Positions 7,927-20,493 of a stretch of DNA of 24,838 nucleotides are shown piece by piece. The position numbers were made by a program, and so were the translations under genes. Source of the stretch: a virus. Lineage: Duplodnaviria > Caudoviricetes. The notes below the pieces were generated by a model that did not search any database, was not told where the DNA came from, and saw nothing but the letters and a program-made list of their open reading frames with translations. Location: positions 1 to 24,838 of the IMG/VR virus record IMGVR_UViG_3300009095_000069; one strand, written 5' to 3'. The stretch's first letter is position 1. Each line of letters opens with the position of its first letter.

Positions 7927-8352
7927 ATGATTGATATGGAAACAAAACTTCAACATAGCACTAATGTTCATTCGGAGCATGTCGCCCCGCCTGACGCAAA
8001 ACCCATGTTATGTGCCGTTTGTAATTCGGATGAGTTGCCTTTGTCCGAATTAGAGGGTTACGAGGGTTTGTGTTTGGGGTGTGAATGTAATAAAATGAAT
8101 GAAAAATTAGAGGAAAAATGGAGCAAAGAATTAGCTATTTACGAAAAAAGAACTGGTCAAAAACTTGACTTCAATGAGTTCTATAACGAATGTGAAAAAG
8201 GCAATGTAGATAAGGCTAATTTGAAGCGGTTACCTGAGTTGAAATCTTGTTACGAAGATGCAATGATGAATATTGCATTCTATGAGCAGGAATATTGGCA
8301 AGGGCAACAATTAGAACTCAAATTTTATGGAGTATATGATTTACCATTTTAG
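7927..8352 (+). CDS. Hypothetical cassette-like gene (CxxC pair, ends DLPF)
   Basis: 141 aa; N-terminus reads through an attC-like right arm (PPDAKPMLCAV). Confidence 0.7.
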   Translation: MIDMETKLQHSTNVHSEHVAPPDAKPMLCAVCNSDELPLSELEGYEGLCLGCECNKMNEKLEEKWSKELAIYEKRTGQKLDFNEFYNECEKGNVDKANLKRLPELKSCYEDAMMNIAFYEQEYWQGQQLELKFYGVYDLPF

Positions 8353-8413
8353 GGTTGCTCAAATGGCACCCAACTCGCAGATTGACCCAACTCTTAACCT
8401 TAAAAACTTTGAA

Positions 8414-10029: not shown

Positions 10030-10527
10030 ATGATAGAATCAACTTGCAAATATTGCGGATGCACTGATACTGATTGCTCCGGGTGTATAAAGAAAACAGG
10101 TAACCCATGTTATTGGATTGATAAAGAAAAAACGATTTGTAGCGCCTGCTATTATGCTGAAGATTTGGTCCTTTCAAAGATTAAAGGGTCCAATTTTAAG
10201 GAAGAGTTTTATAGGAAACAGGAAGAGCTTTATAGTAAAGCTACATCGGAGTGGGAAGGAAAATTAGAATCCTACCTTTTAAACAACCTAAAAAACCTCG
10301 GATATGAATTTGCAAACGAGGATAAGTTTACGGAATTTCTTAAGACTCGTGTAACTCGAATACGATTTGAAGGACGGCACAATTACTATGTACTTTGTCT
10401 TGATTATAAAGTAGAAGAAAACAAGGGCAAAATCATAGGAGTTTATTCTGAAGAAATGAAAATTGTCCAAAATAGTTACGAAACAAAAGTTACTTTAAAC
10501 AGGGTATTAGAAAAAATAGGGCTATGA
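10030..10527 (+). CDS. Hypothetical protein with N-terminal Cys-rich Zn finger
   Basis: CKYCGCTDTDCSGC...CYW...CSAC. Confidence 0.75.
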   Translation: MIESTCKYCGCTDTDCSGCIKKTGNPCYWIDKEKTICSACYYAEDLVLSKIKGSNFKEEFYRKQEELYSKATSEWEGKLESYLLNNLKNLGYEFANEDKFTEFLKTRVTRIRFEGRHNYYVLCLDYKVEENKGKIIGVYSEEMKIVQNSYETKVTLNRVLEKIGL

Positions 10528-10760
10528 CCAAGGATAATTTTAAAAAAAATACTCAAGCAAATCTTTTCGACCTGCCCTCGGAATTAGCTAGGGCAGGTCC
10601 CGGCCTTACCTGCAATACTTGTGAACATAGGCAACGGTGGCAATGCAATAGCAAAGTATTTCAGTATTGCGGAGTACGAAAAAGCAACCGGACTGAAAAT
10701 GGTTTGCTGAAAATTAAATGTAAGGATGCAGCTTGTCCGTTGTACAAGCACTGCACATAA
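10524..10760 (+). CDS. Small Cys-rich hypothetical protein; its stop codon lies in the first TAAC of the array
   Basis: CNTCEH...YC...KCKDAACPLY; TAA at 10758-10760 followed by C. Confidence 0.75.
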   Translation: MTKDNFKKNTQANLFDLPSELARAGPGLTCNTCEHRQRWQCNSKVFQYCGVRKSNRTENGLLKIKCKDAACPLYKHCT

Positions 10761-10849
10761 CGGTTCGGGCTTGGCGAAGTTGCCGACTATAAAACTTAAA
10801 TTATTAACCTAACCGCCCAACGGCAATTTTGCCAAACTGCTTGTTATAT
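10755..10849 (+). repeat. attC-like site 1 (95 bp)
   Basis: ACATAAC ... TTGGCGAAGTTGCCG(10771-85)/CGGCAATTTTGCCAA(10821-35) ... GTTATAT. Confidence 0.75.
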
Positions 10850-10877
10850 GCAGTGGCGGTTACAAATACTAAATATT

Positions 10878-11042
10878 ATGAGTAAAGAAGAAGTAAAAAG
10901 AGAAATAGAATACTTGAGAGATAAACAAGCTAAATACGGATGGCGAGAAGGCGATTCGGAAAAGTTTGAAAAGCTACAAAAATTGTGGGAAAATTTCGCA
11001 CACATTGAAAAGGGAAGGTATGTTAAAGCACCTGAGATTTAG
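10878..11042 (+). CDS. Cassette 1 gene, 54 aa hypothetical
   Basis: ATG 10878 after an A/T-rich leader; unit ends GTTATATGCAGTGGC / GCCATTGCATATAAC. Confidence 0.65.
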   Translation: MSKEEVKREIEYLRDKQAKYGWREGDSEKFEKLQKLWENFAHIEKGRYVKAPEI

Positions 11043-11049
11043 CCATTGC

Positions 11050-11183
11050 ATATAACGTTGTGGCAGCTTGGCGAAGTTGCCGACTTAGACGCACAAAACT
11101 TTCAAATTAGTATAAACTTAAATAAATAGAACAAATGTCAAATTTAGCACAAACTCCGCAATTGAATATAGCTGATGTTAGTG
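11050..11183 (+). repeat. attC-like site 2 (134 bp, arms mismatched)
   Basis: ATATAAC ... GCTTGGCGAAGTTGCCGACT (identical to site 1) ... CGCAATTGAATATAGCTGAT-GTTAGTG. Confidence 0.7.
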
Positions 11184-11401
11184 GCAGTTTTTATTGGGGA
11201 ACCGATTATTACCACCACGACAACGCTTTTACAATGCAAGATTTTTTAAACAACCATTTACCTGCCGATTTCGATGTAATATTTGAAGATGGTAGCTATG
11301 CAGAGGTGCAACAACACGCTACTGATGCAATATTTTCACTTGATGCGAAAGGTAATGGCGACAGCTACCATCACGTAGTTAATTGGCATTTTCTTCGTTA
11401 A
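11135..11401 (+). CDS. Cassette 2 gene, 88 aa hypothetical (start inside site 2)
   Basis: MSNLAQTPQLNIADVSGS crosses the GTTA; unit ends GTTAGTGGCAGTTTT / AAAATTGCCACTAAC. Confidence 0.7.
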   Translation: MSNLAQTPQLNIADVSGSFYWGTDYYHHDNAFTMQDFLNNHLPADFDVIFEDGSYAEVQQHATDAIFSLDAKGNGDSYHHVVNWHFLR

Positions 11402-11407
11402 AATTGC

Positions 11408-11543
11408 CACTAACGTCCCAGCGGCTTGCCGTTCGGTGGCGTACAAATTAGTACAAATGTTTAATAAGAAGAAAAAAGATGAATACAGCACAAAAGCTTA
11501 ATAGTAACACTTCACCCGCCATTACGGCAAACCGATGTTATGT
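11408..11543 (+). repeat. attC-like site 3 (136 bp)
   Basis: CACTAAC ... CGGCTTGCCGTTCGGTGGCG(11422-41)/CGCCATTACGGCAAACCG(11517-34) ... GTTATGT. Confidence 0.75.
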
Positions 11544-11582
11544 GCTGGGCGGGTTATCAGCACTAAATTTAATTAAAAATAA

Positions 11583-11894
11583 ATGGAAAAGGTAATAATT
11601 GACAAAATGAGAGATACTATTATTGTTGAAAAAACAAACGGTAATGATGTTTTAAAGGGCAGCAAGTTTTATTGTGGCTGTTGTGGAAATGTTTTAGGGG
11701 TCGCAAAAAAGAAAATGACATTCCCCTTTTCTGTTGATACATTTAAAACTTTATTAAAGAATAAAACGTTTGATACAATGCTTTTTGGGTTGCGTCATAA
11801 AACTTGCGGACATACAATGTTTAGCTTCAAAAAAGGATATGGATTTATAAGACTGGAAACTTACATTGAAAACGTTCCGCCGCCTGACCACTAA
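11583..11894 (+). CDS. Cassette 3 gene, Zn-ribbon-like hypothetical
   Basis: YCGCCG...HKTCGH; stop TAA is part of TAAC 11892-95. Confidence 0.7.
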   Translation: MEKVIIDKMRDTIIVEKTNGNDVLKGSKFYCGCCGNVLGVAKKKMTFPFSVDTFKTLLKNKTFDTMLFGLRHKTCGHTMFSFKKGYGFIRLETYIENVPPPDH

Positions 11895-11925
11895 CTCGCA
11901 AATTGGCGCAAAACACAAGTTATCA
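11889..11925 (+). repeat. attC-like site 4 (minimal, 37 bp)
   Basis: CACTAAC-TCGCAAATTGGCGCAAAACACAA-GTTATCA; no strong inner stem. Confidence 0.55.
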
Positions 11926-11949
11926 GATGGCTTTCTTAAATTTTAAAAT

Positions 11950-12384
11950 ATGACAACATACGTTTTAACAGTTTCAGAGTTCTTTCCAAAAACTCACAAA
12001 AAATCAGGTAAGGCAACGGGTTTTCCTTTGTCAATTAAGCATTATGATAAAATACACACTATCAGAGGCAACTATGATTTGTGGGCTAAACGCTTTGAAA
12101 AAATAAACAAAGGCGAGGCAATTTTATCAGTTAGAATTTGGTCAGGTAAGCCATATCAAAGTAAACAACAAGAGATTTTCAAGTATGATAAAACTCACGG
12201 AATAGGTTTACAAAAATTAGAGCAACCAAACAATTTTGTATTTGCTTCAATTGAAGGTAAAAAAGTAAACTGGGATTTGGTTGCAAAAAATGACGGATTA
12301 AGTTTTGAAGATTTTTGCGACTGGTTCAAAGTTCGGTCAGACAAACCTATGGCGATTATTCATTTTACGGATTTTCGTTATTAA
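11950..12384 (+). CDS. Cassette 4 gene, ASCH/PUA-like protein
   Basis: KIHTIR...WSGKPYQSKQ...AKNDGLSFEDFCDWF...IIHFTDFRY; unit ends GTTATCAGATGGCTT / AAGCTCTCTGATAAC. Confidence 0.75.
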   Translation: MTTYVLTVSEFFPKTHKKSGKATGFPLSIKHYDKIHTIRGNYDLWAKRFEKINKGEAILSVRIWSGKPYQSKQQEIFKYDKTHGIGLQKLEQPNNFVFASIEGKKVNWDLVAKNDGLSFEDFCDWFKVRSDKPMAIIHFTDFRY

Positions 12385-12390
12385 GCTCTC

Positions 12391-12513
12391 TGATAACGTT
12401 CAAAGGCTTTTAGTTCGTTGGGGTTTCCCAGCACAAAAGCTCTGTTGTTCGGGCAATGAGGCATAACGCTGAGTATAAACGCTCGTTTTAATGGCGTTTA
12501 TACATTGTTAGCT
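12391..12513 (+). repeat. attC-like site 5 (tandem: hairpin 12391-12450 plus compact 53 bp site 12461-12513)
   Basis: TGATAAC..GCTTTT..TGGG-GTTT-CCCA..AAAAGC..GTTG; then GCATAAC-GCTGA-GTATAAACGC/GCGTTTATAC-ATT-GTTAGCT. Confidence 0.7.
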
Positions 12514-12535
12514 GACTGTATAAAATTTTTACTTT

Positions 12536-12862
12536 ATGAGAACATTTAAATTTGAAAAAGAACAAGACAATAGATGGTATGTGGTGCTTCCCGAATGGGA
12601 AGGCGACAAGGCAGAACTTGAAATGGTATGTGGTGCTGATGTAATGCTTGATATAGTGGCACAAGGTGAATGGCACACTTACTTAACGATAAGCGATAAG
12701 GAATTTGATAACCCAAGATTTACACTGATTTTTAATAGAGAAGAAGCTGATGGTGGATGGTATGATTTGAAAAGCGATATGCACGAATTTGAAGTGTGGT
12801 TGTGCCACGTTACAAAATTTGTATTTGATGGTCGCCTTCCAAAAATTTTATATTGCAGCTAA
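12536..12862 (+). CDS. Cassette 5 gene, DUF6717-like hypothetical
   Basis: RWYVVLPEWEGDKAELEMVCGADVMLD...WLCHVTKFVF...P; stop in TAAC 12860-63; family recognition from memory. Confidence 0.7.
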   Translation: MRTFKFEKEQDNRWYVVLPEWEGDKAELEMVCGADVMLDIVAQGEWHTYLTISDKEFDNPRFTLIFNREEADGGWYDLKSDMHEFEVWLCHVTKFVFDGRLPKILYCS

Positions 12863-12985
12863 CGTTTTGGCTATGAAAAGTAGCGGAGTTGAAACACTTA
12901 ACTATCGAATGATAGCAAACTTAAATACAATTATTAACCTTACGGTAAGCACTAACACCGATATTTTTTATAGCCGTTGTTACCT
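12857..12985 (+). repeat. attC-like site 6 (129 bp)
   Basis: AGCTAAC ... GGCTATGAAAAGTAGCGG(12869-86)/CCGATATTTTTTATAGCC(12958-75) ... GTTACCT. Confidence 0.75.
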
Positions 12986-13006
12986 GCCGTTTTTATTCAA
13001 ATCATT

Positions 13007-13243
13007 ATGAATGTACCACATTTAATAAAAGCTGGAGACACAAGAGTATTATTAGGGAAAGACTCAACTCCTCCAAAAGTAGATTGTCGAGTTTGGGCAG
13101 AAGATAGCTACCAAGAAGTGTTAGAAATACTTTTGGAAGTTAGAAAGAAAGACATCCAAATGTATGTAGAAGGGGAAAGGCCACTATTACCGCAACCGCT
13201 TAGAAAAAGAATACACGACTTTCTTTCTTCAAATGGCAGGTAA
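13007..13243 (+). CDS. Cassette 6 gene, 78 aa hypothetical
   Basis: ATG 13007; stop in TAAC 13241-44; unit ends GTTACCTGCCGTTT / AAATGGCAGGTAAC. Confidence 0.7.
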   Translation: MNVPHLIKAGDTRVLLGKDSTPPKVDCRVWAEDSYQEVLEILLEVRKKDIQMYVEGERPLLPQPLRKRIHDFLSSNGR

Positions 13244-13268
13244 CGTTTTGCAGATATATGTAGTTGCG
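13238..13268 (+). repeat. attC-like site 7 (left half only)
   Basis: AGGTAAC-GTTTTG-CAGATATATGTAGTTGCG; no local right arm found. Confidence 0.55.
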
Positions 13269-13287
13269 AAATTTAAAAACAAAAATT

Positions 13288-13746
13288 ATGAGTTACGATG
13301 AAAATAGAATATCCGACCAAATTGATGGCGGGTTAAAAGAACAAGAAAATAGCATCAAAATCGACTATGCGCTTTATAGGAAAATATCTGATACAAATCC
13401 ATTAATCAGATATGAGACATTAAAAGAAGCTAAATACGAATATTTGAACTCAAAGGATTATATAATGATAGTCTGCGAGGTTTCAGAATTGAGAAACGGC
13501 AAAAGAATTATAACTCAAGAACGAGTTATAAAAGCTCCGCAAATATGGCTACCTGCTGATAGATTTATTCCTGAGTTTGATGACATGTACTTATGTCATA
13601 TTGTTAGAAAAGAAGAATGTGGGAAATTCAAGAAATACCAATGTGTACTTAATTTTGAAAAGGGCAAGTGGAAAACGGTATTGGCTGAAAGGGTAACACA
13701 TTGGATGATTGTCGAAGAACCAATGTCTAAAATAAAGATGTTGTGA
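13288..13746 (+). CDS. Hypothetical protein with C-terminal DUF551-like domain
   Basis: W...P....YL...W......VTHWM; ATG at 13288 preferred over TTG 13264. Confidence 0.7.
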   Translation: MSYDENRISDQIDGGLKEQENSIKIDYALYRKISDTNPLIRYETLKEAKYEYLNSKDYIMIVCEVSELRNGKRIITQERVIKAPQIWLPADRFIPEFDDMYLCHIVRKEECGKFKKYQCVLNFEKGKWKTVLAERVTHWMIVEEPMSKIKML

Positions 13747-13830
13747 AAATGTCTGTAGCAATTACGGCTAACACCTAAATACACGCAACAACTACAAAAT
13801 GTCTGAAAAACAAAACAATTTAATTAAAGA

Positions 13831-14055
13831 ATGAAGATAGCAGTAAAAGCAGGGTTGAAGCCGGATCCGGTATTGACGGTATCGGAGTGGTCAGACCGGA
13901 ATAGAATGTTAGATAGCCAGAGCTCAGCGATGCCGGGACGGTATAGGACGTCGGTAACCCCGTATCTTAAAGACATAATGGATGCCCTGGGGGAGTACAG
14001 CGAAGTTGAGGAAGTGATTGTAATGAAAGGAGCGCAGCTTGACGAAATAATGTAG
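13831..14055 (+). pseudogene. N-terminal fragment of a lambda gpA-type terminase large subunit
   Basis: PDPVLTVSEWSDRNRML...PGRYRTSVTPYLKDIMDAL...EEVIVMKGAQL; stops at the Walker A region after 74 aa. Confidence 0.8.
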
Positions 14056-14123
14056 GACAAAATGAAACCTAAGCTAAACAATATCAGGCAAACTCTTTCA
14101 AAAGAAAGAAAAAAAATAACACT

Positions 14124-16586
14124 ATGGAGCAAATAATGTATGACGTAATTGAATCCTTATGCGATGATGGGTGCAGTATCATGCCGGCAAAGGATAAATT
14201 CCCGTTCAGGCGGCAATGGAAGAAGTATGTTGACAACCCTATGGGTATTAGTGAAATCAGATACACCATGGCGGAGTACGATTTGGATTCTATTTGCCTG
14301 CTATGCGGAGGTGAAAAACAAATAGAAACCATAGATATTGATGACAAATACCTGCCCGGAATAGGTGCAAAAATACTAAGCCGTATCCATGATGTTGACG
14401 TAGAACTATATGACAAGCTACTTATAGGGAAAACCCTTAACAACGGATACCATATATACTACAAGATAGACGGAGGAGAAGCGGACGGTAATAAGAAGCT
14501 ATGTAAGCGTCATGCAACGAATGATGAACTTATAGATAAGCCGAATGAGGAGTACAAATGTTTCGTAGAAACAAGAGGTAAGGGGGGATTGGTAGTCATT
14601 CCTCCATCAAACGGGTACAACTTTATTAAGTTTCCTAAGATGATGGATGAAACAAACGTTAGGCTACCGAAACTTACATGGCTTGAACGCTGCTCCTTGA
14701 TGTCTATCGTAACGTCTTTTAATCAGGTCAATGATATACCAAAATCTGCACCATCAAACTTTAAGGACTACAATGCCAAATACGACAAAGACCCCGTTAC
14801 CGATTTTAATAACCGGTTCGATGTAGTTTCGTTTTTAGATAAGCACGGATGGAGTTACAGTTCGGAAAAGCGTGGGCAATACATATACTTCACACGTCCG
14901 GGCAAGGACAAAGGTGTAAGTGCAAGTTTTAACACCCAAACACGGTACACATGGATTTACACGTCATCCACCGGGCTTGATAGCGAAAAAGGGTATTCCC
15001 CGTTTTCTTTGTTTGGGATATTGGAGTACAATAGTGATTTCAAAAAAGCCTTTCAGGGGGTTATAGAATTGGGTTTTGGGGAGTTAAAACCTGCCGAGAA
15101 GAAGAAGTTAACGCAGCTCACCACAAGTAATATCCTGTTGGGTAAAAACTATGCGATACCCAGTCAGATAGACAATGAGGAGTTTAAGGAGCATCTTGAC
15201 GAGCAGATACAGATGTATCCGTATGGTATCTTTTGGGAACAGCGGGAACATCGTGGTAAAATAGTGGCTGATGTAGATAGGACAAGGCTTTATGAGGTTA
15301 TGGACAACTTAGGGTTTAGGCTATACAAAGGTGATTTGGTAAGAGTAAAGGAGAATGAGCATGTTGTCAATTCCACAAACCAATGGGTGTTCCCGACACA
15401 AAGGAAGGAGCTTATAAACGTTCTAAAGAACTACACCCAAGAGGCAAAAGACACCGTGATAAGGAATGCCATTGATGCATTTTCGGAGCGGCATTTAAAG
15501 CACATAGTTGAGAACCTAAGAGATATTAAGCGTAGTGATTTCTTAAATGATGACAAGTCCACCTGTTACAAGTTCTTTAAGAATTGCATCGTGTTCATGA
15601 CAAAAGACGGAGTAACAGTCAGGGATTATGCCTCCTATGATAACAAGCTATTTCACGACTATAAATTTATAAACTACGAGTTCAAGTCTGGATTTAAAAA
15701 GAGATTATCGAACGATGGCAAGTGGATAGAATTTGTAAGTTTAGCCAGCACCAGTTACGGGCGTGCTATGGAGTGCGCAAGCTATTTGATACACGATTTC
15801 AAAAGTTCCGATACGTCCTATATTATTGGTCTTACGGAGGAGTGCGAGAACCCTAAGAACGGAGGCGGTGCGGGTAAAAACCTATTTATGAACCTATTGG
15901 GCAACCTAATTAGCATCAAGTCCGTACCGGGTGAGCAGGTTAAGCTGGACGAAAGATTTTTGCAGCAATGGGATGGAGAAAGGGTGTATAGTTTAAGCGA
16001 TGTACCCAAGCGATTTAACTATATGTTCTTAAAAGAATTGATAACCGGAGCAGGTACAAACAAAAAACTATGGTCTAACATACAAGTTATTGAGCCGGAG
16101 GATATGCCCAAGTTCGCCTTTTCCACTAACTTTTCGTTCAACATAACGGATGGTGCTTTGGCTCGTAGAGGTAGGACGATAGAGTTTACCGATTTCTTTA
16201 CCCGATCCAAAGGTGTTGACGTATATTTTGCCGAAAAGTACAACCACCCTACCGGATTTTTCCCTGAAAACAGATATTTTGAGCGAGGAGCAAATGTGGA
16301 AACATGTTGGACGGAATACGATTGGGATTGTTTTTTTTATGACGTATTTGATGCGATGACGTTGTTTTTATCGAGAGGGTGTAAGATACCCGAAGCAACG
16401 CTAAGCGATGGCGGTTGGAACAAGGCATTTACTTCGCAGTTTGGCGACAATACCATGCACTTTATTGAGGATACCATTCAGAAGTTTGTGGATAGGGGTT
16501 TTGTGAGCAATGAGGACATTAGAGCCACCAATGAAGAAGATTTTGTCAATGATTTGATAGCATTCAACCATATTGAAGTGATATAA
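14124..16586 (+). CDS. Bifunctional primase-polymerase (AEP/Prim-Pol) fused to a P-loop helicase-like domain
   Basis: ETIDID, T..NGYHIYY, ETRGKGGLVVIPPS; RPGK..GVSA; C-terminal GGAGKNLF (Walker A), FSTNF, ALARRG. Confidence 0.85.
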   Translation: MEQIMYDVIESLCDDGCSIMPAKDKFPFRRQWKKYVDNPMGISEIRYTMAEYDLDSICLLCGGEKQIETIDIDDKYLPGIGAKILSRIHDVDVELYDKLLIGKTLNNGYHIYYKIDGGEADGNKKLCKRHATNDELIDKPNEEYKCFVETRGKGGLVVIPPSNGYNFIKFPKMMDETNVRLPKLTWLERCSLMSIVTSFNQVNDIPKSAPSNFKDYNAKYDKDPVTDFNNRFDVVSFLDKHGWSYSSEKRGQYIYFTRPGKDKGVSASFNTQTRYTWIYTSSTGLDSEKGYSPFSLFGILEYNSDFKKAFQGVIELGFGELKPAEKKKLTQLTTSNILLGKNYAIPSQIDNEEFKEHLDEQIQMYPYGIFWEQREHRGKIVADVDRTRLYEVMDNLGFRLYKGDLVRVKENEHVVNSTNQWVFPTQRKELINVLKNYTQEAKDTVIRNAIDAFSERHLKHIVENLRDIKRSDFLNDDKSTCYKFFKNCIVFMTKDGVTVRDYASYDNKLFHDYKFINYEFKSGFKKRLSNDGKWIEFVSLASTSYGRAMECASYLIHDFKSSDTSYIIGLTEECENPKNGGGAGKNLFMNLLGNLISIKSVPGEQVKLDERFLQQWDGERVYSLSDVPKRFNYMFLKELITGAGTNKKLWSNIQVIEPEDMPKFAFSTNFSFNITDGALARRGRTIEFTDFFTRSKGVDVYFAEKYNHPTGFFPENRYFERGANVETCWTEYDWDCFFYDVFDAMTLFLSRGCKIPEATLSDGGWNKAFTSQFGDNTMHFIEDTIQKFVDRGFVSNEDIRATNEEDFVNDLIAFNHIEVI

Positions 16587-18464: not shown

Positions 18465-18937
18465 TGGCAGGTTATAATAAATGTGACAAATTAGAGCTAT
18501 CCAAACGGATTCGAGCGGTTCAGGAATATGTCTTGATGGACTATAGCCGCAGTGACATTATAGCTCAGGCAATGACCCAATGGGGCATTTCCAAGTCTCA
18601 GGCAGTCAGGTATTACTATTTAGCCTATGATAGTTGGCAGGAGATTACGGAGAAAGACACAGCTCGTCGGCTTAATTATCATATCCACAAACGAATGAAG
18701 CTTCTTCGTCAAATTGACCGGGAATACCTTAAGACACCTCAGGGTGTAAAGGCTCAGCTTGACATTGTTCAGGATTTGGCAAAGCTGGAAGGTTTATATG
18801 TCCGGAAGCTTGAGGTTACCGGCAAAGAAGGAGAGCCAATTGCTATTAAAGTGGATCCATCACCGATTGATTATTCAAAGCTTTCAGACGCTGCATTAGA
18901 TGAAATTATAAAAGCACGAATTGATGAAGAATTATGA
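18464..18937 (+). CDS. Probable terminase small subunit
   Basis: HTH-like N-terminus; LAKLEGLY...EVTGKEGEPI...DYSKLSD..L; ATGA-coupled to TerL. Confidence 0.7.
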   Translation: MAGYNKCDKLELSKRIRAVQEYVLMDYSRSDIIAQAMTQWGISKSQAVRYYYLAYDSWQEITEKDTARRLNYHIHKRMKLLRQIDREYLKTPQGVKAQLDIVQDLAKLEGLYVRKLEVTGKEGEPIAIKVDPSPIDYSKLSDAALDEIIKARIDEEL

Positions 18938-20493
18938 GGGCACGCAAAATACTAAGGGAGCAGGCTAGACAGATCGTAAAGGATGAAGCAAAGATTCTCA
19001 TTGACACAAACCTTGCATTAGGTGAGAAGTGTAATAGACGGCTTTCGTTTTTTGTAAAAGAGTTTTGGAGTGTAATCATCCCGGATAAATTGGTTTGGAA
19101 TTGGCACCTTGATATCCTTTGCAATGAAATACAAGTAGTTTATGATCGTGTAATCGGGTATGAAGTTGAGGATCCTAATGATCCTGAAAAAAAAATAAGA
19201 GTTCGCCTCCCAAAGCTTTACGACCTAATCATCAATATCCCTCCCGGTACTTCAAAGTCTACAATCTGTACCATAATGGCACCGGCCTGGAGCTGGGGGA
19301 AGGATTCTTCGCTCCGGCACATGACCGGATCTTACTCTGCAAACCTATCCATGGACCACTCTGTAAAAAGCAGAGATATCATCAAGAGTGACAAATATCG
19401 TAGGTACTTTCCCAATGTTATCATCAAAAAGGATGAGGATAATAAAACCAATTTCAGGACCACCAATAATGGCCAGAGGTTTGTTACCTCTACCGGAGGG
19501 GCAGCAACCGGTGTGCACGCCCATATCATTACCATTGATGACCCTTTAAACCCCAAGCAAGCAGCTTCTGCAGTTCAATTGCTTGAAGCTAATAATTGGT
19601 TTGACAAAACCCTTTCCACTCGTAAGGTTGATAAGGATGTAACACCTACCATCCTAATAATGCAGCGGCTTGCAACGGATGATCCTACAGGGCATTTACT
19701 TGAAAAACGTGGGAATAAAATAAGGCATGTTTGTTTACCTGGTTCTTTGGAGTCGGGAACAGTTAAACCATCCAAATATGAGAAGTATTACAAGGATGGA
19801 CTGTTAGACCCGTTGAGGTTAAGCAGGAAAGTATTGGGTGAGTTAAAGACAGATCTTGGGTCGTCCGGCTTCTCCGGTCAGGTTGGGCAGTCACCAGTAC
19901 CTGCAGCAGGTTTAACGTGGCAGAAATGGTTTATAGAGGTGCCGGATGAAGTTTTTCCGCCGGTATCAATGATGGATAAGTATGGAACAGATTGGGATTT
20001 GGCTTACACTAGTGATGATGAAAATTCAGCAAGTGCTTATGTTTCTGCAGGCAGGATTGGAGTAAAACGATACATTGAGGATTTAGATTGGAAATGGCTT
20101 GAATTTCCTGAATTAATCAAGTGGATGAAAAGCATCAAGGGGCCACATTATATTGAAGCTAAAGCGACTGGGAAAAGCGCCAAACAAACTCTTACCAAAC
20201 TTGGAATACCAGCGATTGAGATAGCAGTGAAAGGAGGGGATAAAGTTGCAAGAGCTAATATGGCCACTCCGTGGGCAGAATCGGGAATGGTTTATATCAG
20301 GAAGTCCTTAGTCGACAAGCTGTATAATGACTCAAAGCAGGGTATATTGTTTTTCCCGAAAGGGCCTTTTACCGATTTAAATGATGCTTTGACTCAATCC
20401 TTACAACGCCTGGCTCAAAATTCAGGATTAGTAGTTGCCGGGGATGAGCCTGATAATTCATCTGATTTGGATTGGTTAGATCATGAATTTTGA
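18934..20493 (+). CDS. terL: Terminase large subunit
   Basis: NWHLD..C; INIPPGTSKS (Walker A); TGVHAHIITIDDP; IMQRL; WDLA, IEAKATG, DK..RA, D..DAL nuclease motifs. Confidence 0.93.
   Translation: MRARKILREQARQIVKDEAKILIDTNLALGEKCNRRLSFFVKEFWSVIIPDKLVWNWHLDILCNEIQVVYDRVIGYEVEDPNDPEKKIRVRLPKLYDLIINIPPGTSKSTICTIMAPAWSWGKDSSLRHMTGSYSANLSMDHSVKSRDIIKSDKYRRYFPNVIIKKDEDNKTNFRTTNNGQRFVTSTGGAATGVHAHIITIDDPLNPKQAASAVQLLEANNWFDKTLSTRKVDKDVTPTILIMQRLATDDPTGHLLEKRGNKIRHVCLPGSLESGTVKPSKYEKYYKDGLLDPLRLSRKVLGELKTDLGSSGFSGQVGQSPVPAAGLTWQKWFIEVPDEVFPPVSMMDKYGTDWDLAYTSDDENSASAYVSAGRIGVKRYIEDLDWKWLEFPELIKWMKSIKGPHYIEAKATGKSAKQTLTKLGIPAIEIAVKGGDKVARANMATPWAESGMVYIRKSLVDKLYNDSKQGILFFPKGPFTDLNDALTQSLQRLAQNSGLVVAGDEPDNSSDLDWLDHEF

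Follow-up and report, generated by a model that had tools for sequence, protein, structure and literature searches.

Why would the two ends of single-gene units in a phage genome be complementary to each other well beyond a 7-bp core? The question is raised by an array in IMG/VR virus record IMGVR_UViG_3300009095_000069, a linear record of 24,838 bases that is estimated to be 46% complete and was analyzed at its full length (the window). A preliminary description had recognized six such units between 10843 and 13244 and proposed that their ends were once paired in one folded site of an excised circle. We find that the array is partly decayed, enzyme-less, and integron-like, with negative tests for IntI and for extrahelical bases, and that the paired ends of its cassettes are probably half of a single-stranded recombination site that is complete only in the excised circle. 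Phage genes in the window include those for a terminase, a primase, a DNA methyltransferase, and PcfJ (Pfam/PHROGs). One linker motif of the array occurs in an estimated ~3900 genome stretches, and 53 of the 78 distinct loci listed are Bacteroidota by title (a count of titles; the remaining loci include chance matches); another motif occurs in 61 viral stretches. Because of these loci, and because the Polaribacter phages P12002L and Leef_1 carry units of the same type, we read the host, which the record does not give, as probably a member of Bacteroidota.

On the coding strand of the phage, each unit consists of a linker hairpin, an arm beginning with GTT, a gene, and an arm with terminal AAC. 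The coordinates and pairing counts reported for the ends of the six units all hold. Unit 1 (10843..11056, on the + strand, as are all cassettes and linkers below; open reading frame [ORF] 10848/10878-11042) pairs at 14/15 positions between arms 10843-10857 and 11042-11056, and unit 2 (11177..11414; ORF 11135-11401) also at 14/15, from 11177 against 11400-11414. For unit 4 (11919..12397; ORF 11950-12384, phrog_8581, of unknown function), the count is 13/15, with the right arm at 12383-12397, and for unit 6 (12979..13244; ORF 13007-13243), it is 13/14 (13/15). Unit 5 (12507..12863; ORF 12536-12862, DUF6717) pairs over 8 + 12 bp flanking a one-base bulge (12507-12530 against 12841-12863), which is also present in a relative (L209). 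Unit 3 (11537..11895; ORF 11583-11894) is weaker, as had been said, with 9/15 (pairs at bases 1-4, 8, and 12-16, none at 5-7 or 9-10); its relatives in L289, L290, and L292 are intact, and we therefore regard the window copy, with its decayed right arm, as a degenerate form. As described, the right arm overlaps the last codons of the gene in units 5 and 6 and terminates in the stop codon TAA of TAAC; the same is true of unit 3. The preliminary description missed that the mismatch at base 11 is a left-arm G facing a right-arm T in units 1, 2, 3, 4, and 6. In unit 5, the G·T joins left base 12 to right base 11 across the bulge.

The proposed comparison of own ends with shuffled ends favors the true pairing. 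Among all 720 left/right end pairings of the six units (with the end of unit 3 at 11895), own ends score best over bases 5-15, their 47 matches being reached by 1 of 720 permutations; over bases 8-15 alone, 4 of 720 pairings reach the own-end score. Chance pairing is ruled out by this permutation and by the foreign-end controls below. The claim that pairing is cassette-specific stands in that sense only, since in L284 the arm pair of unit 1 flanks an unrelated gene as well and, of 124 distinct arms, 12 occur with more than one unrelated cargo family. The left arm and first bases of unit 1 precede three other genes in L284, L285, and L286, the first of which also has the right arm; arm pairs are thus re-used around unrelated cargo.

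Relatives show that the arms have a fixed geometry. From viral contigs, we took 42 distinct cassette starts anchored on a linker pattern, and we picked their ends by bases 1-10 only. An exact 10-base own end was present for 29 of the 42 (13 lacked one), compared with 37 matches in 1624 trials with foreign 10-mers. All 29 cassettes, representing 19 distinct arms, have G·T at 11 and pairs at 12-14; 21 are paired at 15 and none at 16, and four pair types occur at 13 and at 14. Chromosomal cassettes have A·C at 11 on the coding strand in 10/13 cases and looser pairing at 12-15, in a set where only 15/133 matches had an exact own end. When copies of the same cassette were compared, 66 pairs showed six one-sided arm changes and no compensatory ones.

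Within a single integron cassette, the two R boxes are known to complement each other (Nivina 2016, PMC5027507, in the parts covered). A core of the attC type is present here, with AAC...GTT and with 7-base R boxes that are complementary between the two ends of a cassette, and it is extended to 14-15 bases. As a classical control, we used cassettes adjoining true IntI genes. A strict attC detector yielded only 4 of them, so that a looser detector was used instead; 20 were found in 22 loci examined, and 17 with at least 6/7 core matches were kept. All 17 are paired at base 7, 14 at base 8, 12 at base 9, and 10 at base 10, with 7 at base 11, 5 at base 12, and 1 at base 14; base 11 is A·C in one and G·T in none. 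Because classical cassettes also pair past 7 bp, fading by base 10-11, own-end pairing somewhat past 7 bases is not new in itself. The distinctive feature is the fixed arm geometry: G·T at 11, pairs at 12-14, and none at 16.

The units had been thought to move independently, and comparative evidence bears this out, since they recur beside other neighbors in other contigs. Unit 2 recurs (at 87-89%) with other neighbors in two contigs (L287 and L288), unit 3 (85-88%) in four, unit 4 (89-92%) in four, the 92% copies being those of L194 and L195, unit 5 (91%) in one (L209), and a 78-amino-acid (aa) gene at the start of the array at up to 86%. The similarity runs as far as the closing AAC or breaks off slightly before it, and the contigs have no second cassette body in common; in two copies of unit 4, the right end is different and a part of the following linker is shared. 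Arms are missing altogether from some distant relatives, both of unit 4 and of the 78-aa gene. Cassettes therefore move as single units between arrays in an integron-like manner.

A unit owns the hairpin in front of its gene and not the hairpin behind it. Among 179 linkers, those with the same gene behind them are at least 80% alike in 30/38 pairs, compared with 0/5 pairs with the same gene in front and 63/3000 unrelated pairs. A linker thus moves together with the gene that follows it, which places the probable crossover at the AAC 3' of the gene and makes the phage gene antisense to the site. Consistent with this polarity, G·T lies on the coding strand in 124/129 viral units with an ORF, and A·C in 42/51 genome units. 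With one pattern for both sets, flanking ORFs are antisense in 72 and sense in 3 viral cases (19 ties, 2 too short) and sense in 44 and antisense in 12 genome cases (12 ties, 60 too short). The integron arrangement, a gene followed by its own site and read in the direction of that site, is accordingly absent from the phage units and found in most chromosomal ones. The antisense layout of phage genes means that the linker precedes the gene and often provides its start codon: the ORF starts inside the linker in 29/29 anchored viral cassettes, mostly 41-53 bases before GTT, and likewise in unit 2 of the window.

The linker itself repeats the pattern of the arms. Stems in 45 of 67 viral junctions, those with a 4-nucleotide (nt) offset, pair ungapped from positions 2 to 21, with mismatches that are C·A at 6 (34), G·T at 12 (27), and G·T at 15 (34); the G·T at 15 is present in 8/9 genome linkers. 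Position 15 is the eleventh base of an arm beginning G-C/T-T, and from this repetition of the G·T-at-eleven pattern, we read the site as two mirror arms around an uneven spacer. In its available parts, the definition of attC asks for two or three extrahelical bases by the L box (Nivina 2016, PMC5027507); a pair-by-pair look at the 45 stems in the main linker register revealed none next to it. The expectation of long stems with extrahelical bases thus failed, as the arms carry a G·T wobble in their place. An unpaired central spacer of 5-6 nt on each arm, as in attC, is also absent: the 65 scored junctions have offsets of 4 nt (45), 3 nt (17), 2 nt (2), and 7 nt (1), and the spacer is partly paired in viral junctions (2-5 nt in the window by inspection).

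Within arrays, the outer arm is a hybrid of two cassettes, which pairs at 3.81 of 10 positions, compared with 4.01 after shuffling (viral). The idea that neighbors are chosen for compatible arms is unsupported by these values or by those for genomes (5.33 versus 5.05; 463/2000 shuffles). We folded units 1, 2, 3, 5, and 6, each with its own upstream linker, in circle form and in array form. On the + strand, the circle forms reach -24.0, -17.7, -21.2, -18.9, and -23.9 kcal/mol, respectively, and the array forms -20.3, -11.7, -20.1, -9.4, and -14.8 kcal/mol. The circle fold is thus the more stable in 5/5 units, and pairing of the ends in one folded site of an excised circle, as first proposed, is the most likely arrangement. 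The + strand is clearly favored for units 1 and 6 only.

The preliminary description had also suggested a distinct recombinase, and here an association was found, with Xer-like enzymes lacking the IntI insertion. Among 86 viral loci, a motif search turned up four recombinase genes, of which three are distinct; the distance from an array-end AAC to the gene behind it is 47-53 bases in every case. One array-bearing phage in culture, Leef_1 of Polaribacter, carries the enzyme. Of five array-bearing genomes, none has a gene above the IntI cut-off, and the best recombinase match lies beside the array in three, at a contig edge in one, and without an array in one. Ten other recombinase loci contained no G·T or A·C units. 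The array-linked enzymes score 133-209 bits against TIGR02249 (cut-off, 265), and the IntI insertion (I2 helix) is missing from all 13 array-linked proteins, aligned with two IntI proteins and also compared with VchIntIA (2a3v). In a phylogenetic tree, array enzymes and IntI fall apart from the XerC/XerD-like proteins of the hosts (98/93 support); the array enzymes appear neither as one clade nor as the sister of IntI, their joint branch (92/85) being drawn open.

At seven array ends beside recombinase genes, AAC is followed after five bases by TATA or a near variant of it, and then often by CGCA or CAC. By sequence, these short sites are putatively attI-like. The same spacing, without a hairpin, recurs at three candidate insertion sites in the window: 8375..8391 (AAC, 5 nt, GATT, GACCCAA), 3' of a lone cassette; 11896..11918 (AAC, TCGCA, AATT, GGCGCAA), which merges into the last bases of unit 4's lost linker; and 13773..13789 (AAC, ACCTA, AATA, CACGCAA), at the array end.

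Three arrays outside the window are of note. In Arundinibacter roseus (L130, 6382-8504), a recombinase with a long extra N-terminal part (558 aa) is followed by another gene and then by the array; by its sequence, the intervening gene may encode a single-stranded-DNA-binding protein. On the Acinetobacter plasmid NZ_CP104735.1 (L256, 3804-5013), tet(X3) lies between GTTA and TAAC arms (11/15 paired, A·C at 11) directly behind an array-type recombinase gene, and a linker 5' arm follows; this unit resembles the opening cassette of an array of this type. A chromosomal array (L071 and L240, both of genome G003) includes short cassettes in tandem copies, which lack a long ORF.

The anatomy, conservation, mobility, and polarity of the units and their association with an enzyme family are established by these comparisons, and they suggest how the site might work. 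If a cassette were circularized at AA|C, the strand with G·T would fold into one long stem, and both arms would be bound by a Xer-like tyrosine recombinase that lacks the IntI insertion and comes from the host or from another phage. The recombinase would then join the folded strand to a short double-stranded site of the AAC-N5-TATA type, and replication would resolve the product on the model of integrons (Escudero 2016, PMC4792948, in the parts covered). G·T on one strand and A·C on the other would mark the strand to be used, the job done by extrahelical bases in attC.

Several observations weigh against this model. No tyrosine recombinase was found in the window, itself a 46% complete fragment, or in five records with the same cassettes, four of them at least 90% complete; in 2/5 array-bearing genomes, the best recombinase match has no array in the stretch examined, one of the two being at a contig edge, and the link between recombinases and arrays is one of position. 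The linker-ownership comparison is biased by the anchor and search pattern and draws on 8 and 5 groups of loci for its two sides, and a first same-pattern orientation test in genomes was uninformative (16 versus 14, with 34 lacking a complete ORF). One cassette body, at 98% identity, has two unrelated linkers (L212 and L218), the linker of unit 3 is unlike that of its relatives, and the linker of unit 2 (J1) is chimeric; the body with two linkers and the differing linker of unit 3 point to exchange at the GTT side too. For units 2 and 3, both circle strands fold almost equally well. A search of contigs from four runs found no joint of a right arm to its own linker, a result that neither supports nor refutes the circle, because contigs drop rare forms. 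One record that jumps from 11522 back to 10829 was not counted, both points being inside linker arms common to many cassettes. Finally, excision from an array, where the outer arm is a hybrid, is left unexplained.

This last difficulty is addressed by an alternative in which the arms pair inside the array, the gene is looped out single-stranded, and the recombinase acts at the junction of stem and linker hairpin on either side, so that bodies and linkers re-assort. It would explain why resident cassettes keep paired arms while hybrid arms stay unpaired, and why one body is found with different linkers. As a replacement for the circle-borne site, we consider it unlikely: the linker goes with one side only (30/38 versus 0/5 pairs), the non-hairpin array-end site occurs on the AAC side only, and arms up to 2 kb apart would have to meet. 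It may act jointly with the circle-borne site as its excision step, and own-arm loop-out is the main candidate for excision from hybrid sites.

Integrons and attC-site clusters without integrases (CALINs) share with the array a tyrosine recombinase family, the AAC/GTT core, a hairpin site between single-gene cassettes, own-end complementarity, a hybrid site after insertion, and arrays without a nearby enzyme, and the layout and enzyme absence of a CALIN are both seen in the window. The units could be imagined as classical cassettes moved by the true IntI of another bacterium, their long pairing a lineage quirk of the R boxes, the more so as classical cassettes pair past 7 bp as well and IntI1 recombined one P12002L sequence (Qi 2023, PMC9892861, in the parts covered). 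We regard this as improbable. The outer arm here is 14-15 bp with a fixed G·T, seen in no classical cassette, rather than a 7-bp R box; wobbles and C·A replace extrahelical bases in the main linker register, and the spacer is uneven, unlike the attC of Nivina 2016 (PMC5027507, as far as covered); the adjoining recombinase lacks the IntI insertion and falls below the TIGR02249 cut-off, with no IntI above it in 5/5 array-bearing genomes; and phage genes run antisense to the site and have their start codons in the linker. Furthermore, all but one of six sites were recovered with IntI1, and the exception was P12002L_attC1, the sole hairpin of the array family to have been assayed (Qi 2023, PMC9892861, in the parts covered).

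That same report described a CALIN in Polaribacter phage P12002L, one site of the array family being called by HattCI only, and read the sites as classical attCs in divergent directions; its parts covered here do not mention long arms, a wobble, an antisense layout, or a non-IntI enzyme. Its attC1 is a short linker with the loop of window 12468-12506, and the P12002L cassette at ~30948-31120 has G·T at 11. The attC1 oligonucleotide, as given in those parts, held only 7-8 bases of the hybrid outer arms, so the circle form is not what IntI1 was offered. Its attC2 is a stretch past the AAC of the last cassette at the array end, not a linker, and was recombined by IntI1 on one strand. This fits the crossover side proposed here, yet it also counts against our model, showing that IntI1 is not blind to these arrays. 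The P12002L array (L210, 29237-32270) has about four units, three of them methyltransferase genes, and two more candidate units lie at 40047-40154 and 14622-15197.

No more probable than movement by IntI is that the pairing is a relic of cassette making, by template switching or fold-back copying, which no recombinase reads. Re-use of the same arms around unrelated genes speaks for it, as do two features near the start of the array. The arm before the first linker (10748-10761) differs from its relatives at bases 5, 11, and 12, and each of the three changes loses a pair with its own left arm and gains one with the left arm of unit 1 (11/12); templated conversion of this arm is possible, in this one case. 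A perfect 10-bp inverted repeat (10569-10599) stands in the 78-aa gene in place of the linker arm seen in its relatives, and templated changes may thus occur here. Copying, though, yields perfect complements and not an invariant G·T at 11 in 19/19 distinct arms, found again in the linker, and the pairing ends sharply at 15-16. That the arms belong to small non-autonomous transposons, as terminal inverted repeats, or control the small genes as RNA structures is least credible of all: every body does have 14-15-base inverted ends and G·T would be G·U in phage mRNA, but the ends vary by unit (124 distinct arms), target duplications are not visible at junctions, most chromosomal cassettes have the wobble on their non-coding strand, and Rfam gave two matches far below threshold and nothing near that of a family.

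Integration of CTXphi by host XerCD is another close parallel. There, too, a folded strand mimics double-stranded DNA without extrahelical bases, and the recombinase has no I2-like domain and is not phage-encoded (Escudero 2016, PMC4792948, in the parts covered). CTXphi, as described there, has one site and uses housekeeping XerCD at dif, whereas there are many variable sites and cargo arrays here, with recombinases that branch apart from the hosts' XerC/XerD-like proteins. The arrays do not behave as XerCD-exploiting elements: they sit within operons of phages and next to a recombinase group of their own; no search for dif sites was made. A literature search returned nothing on wobble pairs in the CTXphi attP, and we do not claim that parallel. 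In the parts of the surveys covered, one complete integron is named in Bacteroidetes, where integrons are described as rare (Neron 2022, PMC9024848), and no Bacteroidetes model is among 11 (Ghaly 2021, PMC8352920). The literature search found no description of such a system beyond the P12002L array, read as classical attC; it left subscription journals mostly uncovered, and a description may exist.

The array extends from 10524 to 13789 and is longer than the six units first described. Additional elements are a decayed cassette before unit 1, a remnant between units 4 and 5, a unit 7 after unit 6, and a lone unit, U0 (8007..8374), with 12/15 own-end pairing, G·T at 11, and an upstream linker reduced to its 3' half. 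The decayed cassette is that of the 78-aa gene (10524..10761; left arm remnant 10592-10605, right arm end 10761), which is intact, with both arms, in L214 and L218. The linker hairpin J0 (10762..10842, 81 nt) belongs to unit 1, J2 (11415..11536, 122 nt) to unit 3, and J5 (12864..12978, 115 nt) to unit 6. The chimeric J1 (11057..11176) has a 5' arm type that differs from those of L287 and L288 and contains the start codon of unit 2 (11135). Between units 4 and 5, the 5' half of a long linker is joined to the right arm of a lost cassette, with T at 11 (12398..12467, by comparison with L196 and L197), and is followed by the short hairpin of unit 5 (12468..12506, 39 nt, loop TCGTTTTAATG), of the type of P12002L_attC1 (Qi 2023). 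Unit 7 (13245..13772) is decayed, with a 5' half linker, an ORF at 13288-13746, and a right arm at 13758-13772 (T at 11); its left arm was not found. In L196 and L197, the gene of unit 4 lacks both arms, with half a linker upstream and its stop codon fused straight to the next linker, a decay like that of unit 7.

Pfam and PHROGs named no function for any cassette gene. In blastn searches, the array gave just 3 short matches among annotated phages, and a linker gave chance-level matches only among phages and plasmids. Beyond the array, a 74-aa fragment of a terminase large subunit (13831-14124) ends abruptly before the primase gene, and a complete terminase, from a different family, is encoded at 18934-20493; the sequence may have a mosaic joint near 14040 or be an assembly chimera there.

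If the proposed mechanism holds, attC models have overlooked a large system of gene exchange that a phylum shares with its phages. The fixed geometry of the arms would serve as a detection rule, and it predicts which strand, which base, and which enzyme are involved. The system bears on the origin of integrases from Xer-like ancestors and on how cassettes are made, both open questions in the covered parts of Escudero 2016 (PMC4792948), and the tet(X3) unit on the Acinetobacter plasmid suggests clinical reach. We raise, as a tentative possibility that we would not yet bet on, that this is a second full cassette system of Bacteroidota and their phages, in which a Xer-like recombinase without I2 works on DNA that itself encodes strand choice and direction through G·T-marked mirror arms, one of which is carried by the cassette and becomes complete only in the circle. 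Its phage pool would be antisense, with the site giving the start codon and often the stop codon of the gene and with arm pairs re-used. If true, the step that separates integrons from CTXphi-like integration would survive in these arrays in living form, and a route of cassette genesis would become visible.

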